A DNA stretch of 64,000 bases from Chlamydiia bacterium (lineage in GTDB: Bacteria > Chlamydiota > Chlamydiia > Chlamydiales > RGXB01), in assembly GCA_040382515.1 (NCBI GenBank), contig JBEIFH010000003.1, positions 1 through 64,000 of the forward strand. Reading direction: 5' to 3'. Position 1 is the first letter of the stretch, and each line of letters opens with the position of its first letter. Below, in pieces: positions 2,904-7,312 of this stretch. The notes beneath the pieces were generated by a model. The model made no database searches and was not told the origin of the DNA. It saw only the letters and a list, made by a program, of their open reading frames with translations. The position numbers and the translations under genes were made by a program.

Positions 2904-5636
2904 ATGAACACTGTTCTGAGATCGATTTGCCGGTCCCAATCGCATTTGGTTACCGATTATTTGAGGAAGTCGCGTATTCTTAATCCGGGCCAGCAGCTGG
3001 CCGATTTTTTACACACAAATCGACTGGCAGATAAGGGTGAGGGGGTTTATGAGGTGTTTGACCGCTCCACTAAATTTCTGGCCGTTGCCGGAATAAAATA
3101 CTATGGCTCTGCCGAGGCTTCGAACTGGCACTATAAATTCTTGAAGGCCGTTTCGGAATTTAAGGTCATTTTGGGGAGCCCGATGCTGACGAATGCGGGC
3201 AGACGGGAAAAAAGTGTTTCGGCCTGCTCCATTCCGCCGGTCCGGTTGTCTCGGATGCAAAGAGATGAGATTGCCAAAATGGTAGGGGATTACCATACCA
3301 GGGGGATGGGTACCGGATTTTGCCTCGATGATGTGGAAGAGCCCCAGGAGATGGTCCGTTACTTAAACCAAGTTGCCATGTCTGAAGTCCAAAAAGGGAT
3401 GATTGAACGTTCCTGCGGTAACATGGGGGTATTATCGATACACCATCCGAAGGTACTCTCTTTTATCCGTGTGAAGCAAGAGAGTCCCGATATTCAGCAC
3501 TGGAAATTCAACCTTTCGGTCAACATCACCGACGCCTTTATTGAGGCGCTCGAAAAAAACGAACCCTTCACATTGAGCGACGGTCAAAAAGTGGATCCGC
3601 AACTTTTGATGAGTCTGATAGCGGAGCACGCGCATGCTACAGGGGATCCGGGCCTAATTTTTATGGATCGGATCAACCGCCTGAACCGGGTACCGCAAAT
3701 GGGTCGCTACGAGACGGTGGTCCCCTGCGGTGAGGTGTCGCTCTTTTCGGGCGAGGTTTGCCAATTTTCCTACCTGAATCTACCGCAATTTATTGTAGGG
3801 GACAAAATGGATTGGCAAGCCTTGAAAGAGAGCATCCACACCATCATGGTGATTTTGGATAATGCCGTCGAGGTGAATATCGACAGAATGCCGACTCAAC
3901 TGAGTGCCGAAGTGATTTCCAATTTAAGACGTGTCGGTATCGGAATCTGCGGCTTTTCCGAGCTATTGCAGGCAAAGGGGCTCTGTTACGGATCTTTGGA
4001 GGCTCAAAATTTTGCCAAAGAGCTGATGAGTTTCATAAATTTGGAAAGTAAAAGGGCCTCTGTAGAGCTTGCAAAGCAGCGGGGACCTTTTCCATCTTTT
4101 AGAAATTTGAATACCCGTGTAGAGCTTTTCACCAAACCTTTCCAAAAATTCCCCACAACGTGTGCGAGTGAAAAAGATTGGGAGCAGTTAGGTAATGAGA
4201 TCCGAGAGGTGGGTATCCGTAATCTCTCGACAACCATCATCCCCCCAAGCGGAAGAAGTTCTCTCATGGCCGGGTCTAATGCCTCGATAGAGCCCCCATT
4301 TTCACTGGTTGCCGATTCTCGATTGAAAAAGACGCTCGAAACCCATGCCCTCAAAGAGGGATATTTCAACGATTTGGGAGCTGTGTACGATTGCATCGAA
4401 AAAACAGGCAGCCTGCAGCAGTCAGACCTGCCGTTAGCGATCAAGCGGATCTATAGGACGGCTCTGGAAATGACCCCTAATGACCATCTGTCCATGACAA
4501 AAGCGTTTCAATGCCATACCGACGAGGGGATTTCCAAAACGATCAATATGGGTGAAGAATCGTCTGTTGAGGAGGTAAAAAACGTATTTCTTTCGGCGAT
4601 ATCTGCTTCTAATATGAAAGGGGTCACTATTTACAGAAACAATAGCCACCGCTTGCAACCAAAATCCCTATCCACCTCTAGTAAGGATTCTCTTATGTTG
4701 ATCGATTCGATTTACGGCACTGTAAAAATAACGCCTAAAATAGCAAAAATTTTAGCCTCCCCTCTGATGGAAAGGCTTAAAAAGGTCAGACAAAATGGGG
4801 TTGCTTACCTTGTGGACCCTAGACAATCCACATCCCGTTATGATCACTCGGTCGGAACTATGGCGCTCGCTAAAATGCTAGGAGCTTCCGAGCTTGAGCA
4901 GATTCAGGCCCTTTTGCATGATGTATCGCATACCCCTTTTTCGCATCTGATCGACTACGTGTATGGATTCAAAAAACAAGATTACCATGAGAAGCATAAG
5001 ATCCGTTTTCTATCCCAAAAATGGGTCCAAAAAGAGTTGCTAGACTGCGGAATTTCTCTCGATGATCTAAAAGAGCAGAGCCCGACGTTTTTCCAAAAAA
5101 ATGGGATCAATATCGATCGGATCGATTATATGATTAGAGACCTCAAGGCGGTGGGCAAGATCTTTCAGCCCGAGTATTCGATGATACTGAACAACCTTGT
5201 GATAGAGGACAAAAGGATAAAATGCCGCGACATGGGGACAGCTAAACTTTTATTCGATAAATTCCTTGAGGTCAATCAAGAGGTCTATTTCGACCCTAAA
5301 GTGGAGGCAGCATCGGTCGCTTTTACAGCTTTGCTCCAAAAAATGCTCCTTGAGGGACTTTTAAAAGAGGAGCAGTTTGAAAAAAGCGAGGAGGAGCTTT
5401 TGGAGGCGATCAAAAACAGCCCCTACAAAGCTGAATTCGAAGCAATTGGGCCAAACAGCCTCAAGGGTTCTTCTTTACTAAAAAATGGTCGCCCACCGAT
5501 TTTACGCAAACTTCGTTTCATCGATCCTGAAATTCAGGGTTTTGAAGGGACGTTGACAGACCACGATCCAAACGCAAAAGCACGCCTTGAGGAATATCTA
5601 TTAAAAACGCCAAAAGAGGTTTACTATCATGGCTAA
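2904..5636 (+). CDS. divergent class II (NrdJ-like) ribonucleotide reductase domain fused to a C-terminal HD-domain phosphohydrolase
   Basis: RNR motifs SPMLTNAG, SAC108, GMGTG, GNMG, FNLSV, GDPG, VPC275GE, C286, RRVGIG, IRNLSTTIIPPSG, IEP, DEGISKTIN, KGVTIYR. HD motifs RLKKVRQNG, RYDH648SVG, ALLH672D673VSHTPFSH, D738RIDYMIRD. Confidence 0.88.
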   Translation: MNTVLRSICRSQSHLVTDYLRKSRILNPGQQLADFLHTNRLADKGEGVYEVFDRSTKFLAVAGIKYYGSAEASNWHYKFLKAVSEFKVILGSPMLTNAGRREKSVSACSIPPVRLSRMQRDEIAKMVGDYHTRGMGTGFCLDDVEEPQEMVRYLNQVAMSEVQKGMIERSCGNMGVLSIHHPKVLSFIRVKQESPDIQHWKFNLSVNITDAFIEALEKNEPFTLSDGQKVDPQLLMSLIAEHAHATGDPGLIFMDRINRLNRVPQMGRYETVVPCGEVSLFSGEVCQFSYLNLPQFIVGDKMDWQALKESIHTIMVILDNAVEVNIDRMPTQLSAEVISNLRRVGIGICGFSELLQAKGLCYGSLEAQNFAKELMSFINLESKRASVELAKQRGPFPSFRNLNTRVELFTKPFQKFPTTCASEKDWEQLGNEIREVGIRNLSTTIIPPSGRSSLMAGSNASIEPPFSLVADSRLKKTLETHALKEGYFNDLGAVYDCIEKTGSLQQSDLPLAIKRIYRTALEMTPNDHLSMTKAFQCHTDEGISKTINMGEESSVEEVKNVFLSAISASNMKGVTIYRNNSHRLQPKSLSTSSKDSLMLIDSIYGTVKITPKIAKILASPLMERLKKVRQNGVAYLVDPRQSTSRYDHSVGTMALAKMLGASELEQIQALLHDVSHTPFSHLIDYVYGFKKQDYHEKHKIRFLSQKWVQKELLDCGISLDDLKEQSPTFFQKNGINIDRIDYMIRDLKAVGKIFQPEYSMILNNLVIEDKRIKCRDMGTAKLLFDKFLEVNQEVYFDPKVEAASVAFTALLQKMLLEGLLKEEQFEKSEEELLEAIKNSPYKAEFEAIGPNSLKGSSLLKNGRPPILRKLRFIDPEIQGFEGTLTDHDPNAKARLEEYLLKTPKEVYYHG

Positions 5637-6582: not shown

Positions 6583-7312
6583 TATCCTCTTTTTTTTCCT
6601 TTGCCCCTTTTTTTTCCCTTTCGTGTCAGCTCATGAGGCGATTTTGCTGATGGGCCCCCCGGGAAGCGGTAAAGGGACTTTTTCCTCCTATCTCGAATCG
6701 GCAGGCTATGGGCACATCAGCGCTGGGGATCTGATTCGCGAGGAGATTTTGAGCGGTTCCGCTCTGGGGCTTAAGCTTAAAGGGATTGTGGATAAGGGGG
6801 AGTACATCGATGCCGATACGCTGTTTTTTTTAGTAGAGGGGAGGGTGCGGGCCTTTTGCGATCGAAAGAGTCCTGTGATCATCGACGGATACGGGAAAAC
6901 AAAAGAGGACTGGGTTCGTCTCAATGCTTTTTTAGAGACTCTAGGGTTGAAACGGAGGGTGATCCTGTTTGAGGCGCCCGAGAAGGTTTGCCTAGAGAGA
7001 GTTCTGGAGCGGCTCGTTTGCACCGATTGCGGATATATCACTGCAAAAAAGCTTGGCTCTATAGAGGGAGCGATTTGCCCCAAGTGTAAAAAACAAAAGC
7101 TTGGGCCCAGAATGAACGATACTCTCAAGGTCACATTAAAAAGGCTTAAGACTTACCATGAAGAAATAAAGCCTCTGCTCCTCGAAACCTACAAAGGGGA
7201 GAATGTGATCATTTACAACAGTGATGTCACTTATGAGGCTTTGGCGAAGGATTTTTCAGCGCTTCTTGAGAAATCTTGTTCTTTGATTGATTATAGAAAA
7301 GCAGCGCCTTGA
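6572..7312 (+). CDS. adenylate kinase family nucleoside monophosphate kinase with signal-peptide-like N-terminus
   Basis: GPPGSGKGT P-loop, HISAGDLIR, IIDGY and a LID with CTDC...CPKC. ATG at 6572 (MRFSILFFFL...VSA) preferred over TTG at 6542. Confidence 0.85.
   Translation: MRFSILFFFLCPFFFPFVSAHEAILLMGPPGSGKGTFSSYLESAGYGHISAGDLIREEILSGSALGLKLKGIVDKGEYIDADTLFFLVEGRVRAFCDRKSPVIIDGYGKTKEDWVRLNAFLETLGLKRRVILFEAPEKVCLERVLERLVCTDCGYITAKKLGSIEGAICPKCKKQKLGPRMNDTLKVTLKRLKTYHEEIKPLLLETYKGENVIIYNSDVTYEALAKDFSALLEKSCSLIDYRKAAP

Follow-up and report, generated by a model that had tools for sequence, protein, structure and literature searches.

A conserved chlamydial operon encoding an RNR-like/HD fusion protein and two predicted exported kinases

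In a stretch of 64,000 nucleotides from a Chlamydiia bacterium (positions 1 to 64,000 of contig JBEIFH010000003.1, assembly GCA_040382515.1; this whole stretch is referred to as the window), three consecutive genes form a conserved operon whose overlaps predict translational coupling. Gene 1 encodes P0001, a fusion of a class II-type ribonucleotide reductase (RNR)-like domain with a SAMHD1-type HD domain (RNR-HD), gene 2 encodes P0002, a kinase of the LicA/choline-kinase fold, and gene 3 encodes P0003, a nucleoside monophosphate (NMP) kinase of the adenylate kinase (Adk) fold. Each domain belongs to a known superfamily; what appears to be new is the fusion, the clade of RNR-like proteins from which it comes, and its combination with two kinases for which export from the cytoplasm is predicted. 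We tentatively interpret the operon as a single nucleotide-conversion module whose functionally linked parts lie in two compartments, an explanation that we hold at somewhat short of an even chance.

Gene order and conservation of the operon

The three genes overlap on the same strand, as the initial annotation of this region had described, and its domain calls of RNR-HD, choline-kinase-like enzyme and NMP kinase hold in Pfam. At the first junction (...CATGGCTAA), the ATG of gene 2 lies within the last codons of gene 1, giving an overlap of 8 bp; at the second (...ATGCGCTTTAG), the ATG of gene 3 at 6572 lies within the end of gene 2, giving an overlap of 11 bp. The open reading frame (ORF) of gene 3, which ends at 7312 on the + strand, has an alternative start at TTG 6542. 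ATG 6572 is the better start, because this is where the orthologues start and because the upstream extension contains an in-frame TAA in the closest relative (G002).

The arrangement recurs in other genomes. At all nine loci with downstream sequence, the gene immediately after full-length RNR-HD encodes a P0002 homologue, and at eight of the nine a P0003 homologue comes next. The nine informative loci fall into three genera: the window's own (five loci), a second (three) and a third (one); a further locus, L018, breaks off within the RNR gene. The second genus, with RNR-HD proteins of 52-54% identity, keeps the gene order, and its genes overlap by 4-7 bp. Since order and overlaps are kept at this level of identity, the three-gene arrangement is more than chance. 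The flanks differ between the genera and include transketolase and HemE, phosphatidylserine decarboxylase, or LysRS. The cassette moves as a unit among environmental Chlamydiales. The linked nucleotide-processing cassette proposed earlier is thus borne out by gene neighbourhoods: the kinases do co-occur with RNR-HD homologues elsewhere, the two kinases are fused in six of 24 relatives, and RNR-like and HD genes are adjacent in Bacillota (see below).

The distribution of RNR-HD is patchy. Among 400 genomes sampled from the order it was found in 11, corresponding to 3 of 216 genera in three families. The genome under study (1.39 Mb, 92.65% complete, with the operon on contig 3) additionally encodes a canonical NrdA (1066-aa frame), a second, canonical Adk and three full TLC nucleotide carriers. 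The operon is accessory, given that the genome has both the canonical NrdA and the canonical Adk. Two irregular copies were observed in one relative, G001, a fragmented assembly with 5% contamination: a kinase gene split over three frames (L015:10431-11218), which represents either a decaying gene or errors, and a 163-aa frame with 76% identity to the first 145 residues of RNR-HD (G001:C8:1390-1824, L149), which is either a stray fragment or an assembly duplicate.

The RNR-like domain lacks the catalytic Asn

The N-terminal part of P0001 matches the RNR barrel in Pfam (PF02867, E 1.6e-71). The best NCBIfam model is NrdJ_Z (TIGR02504), which is matched end to end with 345.2 bits, under its cut-off of 399.95. 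The AlphaFold2 model of P0001, built from 22 family members, has a mean pLDDT of 87.3 and a pTM of 0.84, and its best fold matches are the T. maritima NrdJ structures (1xje), with TM scores of 0.77-0.78 normalised to the target. In the alignment to 1xje, the segment VVPCGEV...GEVCQF stands opposite NPCGE...CNLGS. Specifically, the radical Cys275, Glu277 and the redox pair of Cys108 and Cys286 are kept, and the class II-diagnostic Pro precedes the radical Cys (VVPCGE), while the position of the catalytic Asn is occupied by Val273. The protein thus carries the signature V-C-E-C instead of the canonical N-C-E-C. A second altered site, PPSGRSS, lies in what we take to be the phosphate-binding loop, and the Cys-rich C-terminal domain PF12637 found no Pfam match in P0001.

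The PASV preprint gives N437, C439, E441 and C462 (E. coli) as required for RNR function and Pro438, before the radical Cys, as the mark of class II RNR; it also describes how RNR surveys drop sequences without the N-C-E-C signature as bycatch. By that account P0001, which has the class II Pro but not the Asn, would be dropped as bycatch. In the same way the whole Asn-less clade described below has probably been filtered out of view, since surveys of the kind described there discard sequences without N-C-E-C.

We do not file the RNR part as a class II RNR, because three tested defining features of NrdJ fail. The RNR-like domain is nevertheless probably catalytic, since Cys108, Cys275, Glu277 and Cys286 are invariant over 35 clade members at 26-54% identity and the predicted fold matches that of T. 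maritima NrdJ. Most likely it works with the same radical apparatus as class II RNR.

A clade of Asn-less RNR-like proteins

We aligned 121 homologues obtained from the protein search. In 97 of them the Asn is replaced by Ala, Val, Pro or Ser, accompanied by CQF[GS]Y and, in most cases, PPTGRS; the remaining 24 carry the canonical TNPCGE, CNLGS and APTGT. In a FastTree tree of 117 rows, from which four near-identical sequences were left out (P0004, P0006, P0008 and P0009), one branch with 100% local support separates the Asn-less from the canonical group; the tree is quick and unrooted and speaks to separation, not direction. The HD-fused forms with Val constitute a 29-row clade inside the Asn-less group. 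The two groups differ also behind the barrel: a CxxC follows it in none of the 97 Asn-less sequences versus 15 of the 24 canonical ones, and two Cys residues follow it in only 3 of the 64 short Asn-less forms.

Of five other genomes with an Asn-less protein, four also encode an RNR of class I or III. In the fifth, a Woesebacteria genome, the Asn-less protein is the only RNR found; 41 genomes of the Woesebacteria order, of unknown completeness, have mostly canonical multi-copy RNRs or none. A metagenome scan, in which two of the three search patterns were generic, found the motif in 64 of 80 loci, 54 with the canonical NPCGE and ten Asn-less.

Two side observations were made among these sequences. 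In the sampled order of the candidate phyla radiation (G052-G085), several genomes of ~1 Mb show five to eight RNR barrel matches in pieces on one contig, which is consistent with intein-split or tandem RNR genes. P0092 from Peregrinibacteria (509 aa) has TCCE and, with ETNQLGY, no second redox Cys, and is perhaps a degenerate copy.

The HD domain carries the SAMHD1 motif set

The C-terminal part of P0001 is a predicted SAMHD1-type triphosphohydrolase with all catalytic motifs. In phmmer it matches the C. elegans SAMHD1 homologue 6pwy (1.2e-13), 2q14, 2hek and human SAMHD1. The motifs RxxH (R645..H648), HDxxHxxxxHxxD (H672-D673..H676..H681..D684) and DxxDYxxRD (D738..D741-Y742..R745-D746) are in register with the SAMHD1 proteins, and their columns are invariant in the 22 family members (alignment A1). 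No NCBIfam model matches the HD domain. The family has Asn in QNG where the aligned SAMHD1 sequences have QLG; we take this position to be SAMHD1 Leu150, the 2'-discriminating residue, and treat it as a lead only.

The two kinases and their predicted export

P0002 matches APH and Choline_kinase in Pfam (PF01633, 43.3 bits versus a cut-off of 29), with HxDxxxxN and IDWEY present. Its best NCBIfam matches, GntI and thiamine kinase, lie far under their cut-offs, and no model passes. The closest solved relative is the choline kinase LicA of S. pneumoniae (4r77, E 2.1e-27 over 234 residues); compared with LicA, WxxW is kept and MNDP is changed to MSHP. A look-up in a protein atlas returned choline/APH kinase clusters only. 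No LicC-like gene is adjacent to the gene of P0002, whose neighbour or fusion partner is the NMP kinase.

P0003 matches ADK in Pfam (PF00406, 92.3 bits versus a cut-off of 26.8) and aligns to 5g3y, and it scores 138.1 bits against the Adk model TIGR01351, under the cut-off of 168. One site deviates from Adk: at the position of DGFPRTxxQ, six fusions of the kinase with an Adk-like domain have DGYG(R/C)xxxD, and P0003 shares with all six an Asp in place of the Gln. This Gln, presumably the residue of Adk that reads AMP or adenine, is kept in the genome's other, canonical Adk (DGYPRTLAQA). The frame of that canonical Adk (L150, G000:C5:31800-33300) extends ~85 codons upstream, including a hydrophobic stretch, and its real start looks like MKKEVPPQAVIFIGPPG.

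Both kinases appear to be exported from the cytoplasm. Their N-termini consist of a positive start, a hydrophobic core of 10-15 residues and a small-residue, A-x-A-like end, located directly before the catalytic domain. The same leader pattern occurs in the kinase and Adk orthologues of distant loci. The maximal Kyte-Doolittle hydropathy is 2.3-3.35 for the leader proteins versus 0.19-1.6 for four RNR-HD proteins; P0001 itself, with a maximum N-terminal hydrophobicity of 0.19, has no N-terminal leader. Additionally, leader, kinase and Adk-like domain are joined in one protein of 504-537 aa in six of the 24 P0002 homologues, and all six have the leader at the N-terminus and none at the internal junction. 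Because they are fused in six relatives behind a single leader, the two kinases probably act in succession outside the cytoplasm. The linear chain of reactions proposed in the initial annotation presupposes a single compartment, which is at odds with conserved Sec-type leaders on both kinases and none on RNR-HD.

The exception to the leader pattern is a second kinase copy in two relatives. This LicA-like copy follows the Adk-like gene (L013:5998-7068 in G006 and L012:12508-12933 in G004); in L013 a Pro/Gln-rich N-terminus stands in place of the signal-type leader.

Gene neighbours of the short Asn-less forms

The neighbourhoods of the short Asn-less forms were compared with those of canonical NrdJ. 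The 13 distinct short Asn-less loci comprise five from genomes (L026 being counted with its near-copy L025) and eight metagenomic ones, L032 and L037 being too short; the 15 canonical control loci were taken from the metagenome scan and picked for long flanks, not at random. A NUDIX gene lies within three genes at 8 of the 13 short Asn-less loci versus none of the 15 canonical ones, and a NUDIX, HD or CYTH gene at 11 of 13 versus 1 of 15 (Fisher's exact test, p = 4e-4 and 5e-5, respectively, with related loci not being independent). The single positive control has one CYTH gene, plus a weak YfbR-like match in the same locus. A PfkB, P-loop NMP-kinase-like or APH kinase is found within three genes at 5 of 13 versus 0 of 15 loci, two phosphofructokinases being left out of the control count. 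A dUTPase/DCD gene is next door at two of the 15 canonical loci. The NUDIX neighbours are nearest to NudG-, NudI- and MutT-type (d)NTP pyrophosphatases, and the neighbouring P-loop kinases are similar to dTMP or (d)CMP kinases; none of these matches reaches a curated cut-off.

RNR-NUDIX fusions also occur among the homologues (P0045 and P0080), and at two loci from Bacillota the RNR-like gene is followed immediately by a separate HD gene. These neighbours and fusions suggest that the Asn-less clade as a whole is partnered with enzymes that extend or remove the phosphate chains of nucleotides.

Three loci illustrate the surroundings. In a compact cluster on a 1.0-Mb metagenome contig (L030:5870-12175), the order is NUDIX, P-loop kinase, Asn-less RNR-like, NUDIX, NUDIX, APH-family kinase and MFS transporter; its proteins are cytoplasmic-type except for the transporter, and the cluster parallels the chlamydial cassette with non-orthologous kinases. 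In a Clostridium-labelled metagenome-assembled genome (L025:6216-16958), a cluster begins with His phosphatase, PfkB kinase, Asn-less RNR-like, separate HD and Ham1 genes and continues with unknown, DHH, cytidine-deaminase-like, PLP-decarboxylase-like, dNK/TMPK-like kinase and U32 peptidase genes. This cluster, which holds two Ham1 genes, looks like a dedicated nucleoside pathway. At the Woesebacteria locus the neighbours are a PfkB kinase, a deaminase and PNP.

Features and surroundings of the operon

The features of the operon are collected in Table 1.

Table 1. Positions in the window of the three genes, their domains and motifs, and the upstream promoter-like site
Feature	Position	Strand	Basis or remark
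Promoter-like site TTGCAA-18-TAAAAT, weak	2845..2874	+	30 bp upstream of gene 1
Gene 1, RNR-like/HD fusion protein P0001, 910 aa	2904..5636	+	ORF, Pfam, NCBIfam, AlphaFold2 model
Class II-type RNR-like domain, aa 1-579	2904..4640	+	Pfam barrel aa 147-577 = 3342-4634
SACSIPP motif, Cys108 = first redox Cys	3219..3239	+	invariant in alignments A1 (22 sequences) and A2 (35 sequences)
Finger-loop region VVPCGEV...GEVCQF: Val273, Pro274, Cys275, Glu277, Cys286	3717..3767	+	alignment to 1xje/1xjk
PPSGRSS loop; canonical NrdJ has APTGT(I/L)S there	4242..4262	+	motif table of 121 homologues
Predicted disordered linker, aa 580-596	4641..4691	+	pLDDT < 50
SAMHD1-type HD domain (predicted), aa 597-910	4692..5633	+	PF01966; phmmer
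Gene 2, LicA/choline-kinase-fold kinase P0002, 317 aa, predicted Sec-type leader ~aa 1-18	5629..6582	+	
HLDLHHKN of gene 2	6205-6231	+	
IDWEY of gene 2	6262-6276	+	
FWAAW of gene 2	6433-6447	+	
Gene 3, adenylate-kinase-fold NMP kinase P0003, 246 aa from ATG 6572	6572..7312	+	
Predicted leader of gene 3, MRFSILFFFLCPFFFPFVSA	6572-6631	+	
P-loop of gene 3	6653-6679	+	
DGYGKTKED of gene 3; Adk has DGFPRTxxQ there	6884-6913	+	
Cys4 lid of gene 3, CTDC/CPKC	7019-7030, 7076-7087	+	

The initial description of the flanks as unrelated to the operon is upheld: a carbonic anhydrase gene and a 163-aa ORF without Pfam matches lie upstream, a convergent 400-aa ORF without significant matches lies downstream, and other genes take these places in the other genera. 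The downstream ORF (7291-8493, -) shares 22 bp with the 3' end of the Adk-like gene; neither it nor a further ORF of 973 aa in the window (10265-13186, +) has a significant Pfam match.

The promoter and terminator scan of the operon region gave nothing above chance, with 13 promoter-like sites found versus 10.6 expected from shuffles. The GC content of the operon (0.42-0.48) is no outlier against the window mean (0.425, sd 0.03, in 2.7-kb windows), and composition gives no sign of recent transfer. In the lake metatranscriptome libraries X19 and X20, short contigs with 95-100% identity lie on genes 1 and 3; none of them spans a gene junction and DNA carry-over is possible, so that co-transcription is neither shown nor refuted. 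The libraries X18 and X19, which are labelled as different studies, contain identical contigs and differences and are probably one data set filed twice.

Discussion

In the linked module that we tentatively favour, the kinases would phosphorylate a compound twice in succession outside the cytoplasmic membrane (X-OH -> X-P -> X-PP), which could be in the periplasm, in the inclusion lumen or in the host cytosol. With ATP from the host, they would act on a nucleoside-like compound and so trap or activate it, and the product might be taken up through the organism's NTT-type (TLC) carriers. In the cytoplasm, the RNR-like domain would then perform thiyl-radical 2'-chemistry on a nucleoside di- or triphosphate, with the radical presumably started by adenosylcobalamin from the host, and the fused HD domain would strip the phosphate chain. 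The net product would be a deoxy- or otherwise sugar-modified nucleoside, not a DNA precursor pool. The overlaps, the kept gene order within differing flanks, the kinase-Adk fusions in 6 of 24 relatives and the hydrolase and kinase neighbours of the clade all argue for such a link.

Several observations weigh against it. At locus L019 the kinase is followed by unrelated genes, with no Adk-like gene in ~8 kb downstream. Leader-bearing homologues of both kinases occur in four genomes where RNR-HD was not found (G024, G014, G008 and G019), which suggests an RNR-HD-independent role for the exported kinases; the gene contexts of such stand-alone kinases are uninformative. P0002 is nearest to the choline kinase LicA, not to any nucleoside kinase, and no nucleoside kinase of its fold is known to us. 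The export call comes from sequence inspection and a hydropathy count. If the call holds, the kinases and RNR-HD are in different compartments; the operon contains no transporter gene, so a direct metabolic hand-over is something that we infer. The domains PF01923, PF02572 (cobalamin adenosyltransferase) and PF02310 (B12-binding) were not found in the 92.65%-complete genome. Finally, the missing Asn is required for RNR function according to the PASV preprint, so the RNR-like domain might be inactive or do other chemistry.

Some of these points agree with two separate functions on one transcript, which is the less likely explanation in our view and yet one with a real chance. The operon would then combine an accessory B12-type reductase with a built-in dNTPase (dNTP, deoxynucleoside triphosphate) and general scavenging kinases with no common substrate. 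RNR-HD would make and trim deoxynucleotides, for example as a safety valve or for dUTP removal; a periplasmic adenylate kinase would re-equilibrate ADP/ATP/AMP around the ATP/ADP carrier, and the other enzyme would be a choline-type kinase. The exported kinase homologues without RNR-HD and the closeness of P0002 to LicA agree with this. The dUTPase/DCD genes beside 2 of 15 canonical NrdJ genes indicate that a hydrolase by a reductase can be ordinary pool sanitation, and the Woesebacteria genome with an Asn-less protein as the sole RNR found suggests that the clade can be a working reductase. What speaks against unconnected functions is the strict gene order with stop-start overlaps across three genera with different flanks. 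The Adk-like protein has Asp for the Gln that presumably reads adenine, which the housekeeping Adk keeps, and the thiol tail for normal reductase turnover is lacking, with CxxC in 0 of 97 sequences versus 15 of 24 canonical ones. A canonical RNR is moreover present in this genome and in four of five others with an Asn-less RNR.

Synthesis and delivery of a nucleoside analogue is, in our view, an unlikely purpose of the operon. The altered RNR-like site would then yield a nucleotide with a non-standard sugar modification, from which the HD domain would release an exportable nucleoside, and the secreted kinases would re-activate it outside, with the host, competitors or host viruses as targets. 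Precedents for the logic are viperin with CMPK2, and OxsB with the HD enzyme OxsA (oxetanocin A), in which a radical-SAM enzyme acting on the nucleotide sugar has a kinase or HD partner. The altered active site and phosphate loop, the missing redox tail, the Asn at the presumed SAMHD1 Leu150 position (QNG versus QLG) and the patchy distribution fit this proposal, as do two clusters of the wider clade, namely the Bacillota locus L025, which resembles a biosynthetic cluster, and L030, which holds NUDIX genes, two kinases and an MFS exporter. Set against these are the lack of a known product and of tailoring enzymes in the chlamydial operon, NUDIX neighbours that resemble ordinary (d)NTP pyrophosphatases, and a Woesebacteria locus that resembles plain salvage. 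The nucleoside-analogue biosynthesis suggested in the initial annotation thus stays conceivable, with nothing that supports it directly. Its defence cassette finds no counterpart in PADLOC-DB 2.0, where 0 families matched for three window proteins and five relatives. A more specific version is a little less likely still: the Asn-less, tail-less clade would be a new B12-type radical enzyme making a non-standard sugar-modified nucleotide, which the HD domain would release and the exported kinases would re-activate in the inclusion or host cytosol, as a symbiont-made nucleoside drug against the host or host viruses.

Least probable, and by our estimate a long shot, is that the RNR-like domain is a non-catalytic nucleotide sensor controlling the HD dNTPase in an operon that depletes dNTPs for defence or growth control: the lost Asn, the B12 genes that were not found and the role of dNTP-depleting enzymes as known defence effectors would suit a sensor, but a pseudoenzyme would not be expected to keep the radical Cys, the Glu and both redox Cys invariant throughout a deep clade; PADLOC gives no match either, and the exported kinase pair is left unexplained.

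An active Asn-less clade would mean either that the Asn is dispensable or that RNR-type enzymes perform a new chemistry. The fusion of a synthesising-type enzyme to a SAMHD1-type degrading enzyme is striking for dNTP homeostasis. If an obligate intracellular bacterium does export ATP-dependent nucleotide kinases, this would add a new layer to chlamydial nucleotide parasitism, with phosphorylation outside the cytoplasmic membrane. In the literature covered, that is, main texts outside subscription journals, neither an RNR-HD/SAMHD1 fusion nor an RNR clade without the Asn is described, and the same holds for RNR with NUDIX and for exported adenylate kinases of chlamydiae. The passages of the eLife RNR phylogeny (PMC9531940) found under the terms asparagine, N437 and Chlamyd contain nothing on an Asn-less clade.

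Comparison with known systems

The RNR part shares with class II NrdJ of T. maritima (1xje/3o0o) the ten-stranded barrel, a full-length NrdJ_Z match, the class II Pro, the Glu and the redox Cys pair. It differs by the changes of Asn to Val, CNLGS to CQFSY and APTGT to PPSGRS, is without a C-terminal Cys-rich tail or TSCPD domain, and is fused to HD; it also lies below the NCBIfam cut-off and beyond the fully supported branch that separates the canonical sequences. The HD part shares the extended HD motif set with the SAMHD1-type dNTP triphosphohydrolases (human SAMHD1; 2q14, 2hek). Unlike SAMHD1, it sits at the C-terminus of an RNR-like protein, is without a SAM domain and has Asn at the position that we take to be Leu150.

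P0002 has the Brenner motif, IDWEY and WxxW in common with LicA (4r77), whereas its predicted Sec-type leader, MSHP and its coupling or fusion to an NMP kinase instead of a LicC cytidylyltransferase set it apart. P0003 has the P-loop, the Cys4 lid and most catalytic Arg residues of the zinc-lid adenylate kinase (5g3y), and differs in the predicted Sec-type leader, the DGYGKTKED site and the sub-cut-off NCBIfam score. As a whole, the operon recalls viperin/CMPK2 and OxsB/OxsA in the shared logic of a radical enzyme on a nucleotide sugar together with nucleotide kinases and/or an HD phosphohydrolase; in contrast to both, its radical enzyme would be RNR-like, with no homology to radical-SAM enzymes, and its kinases are predicted to be exported.

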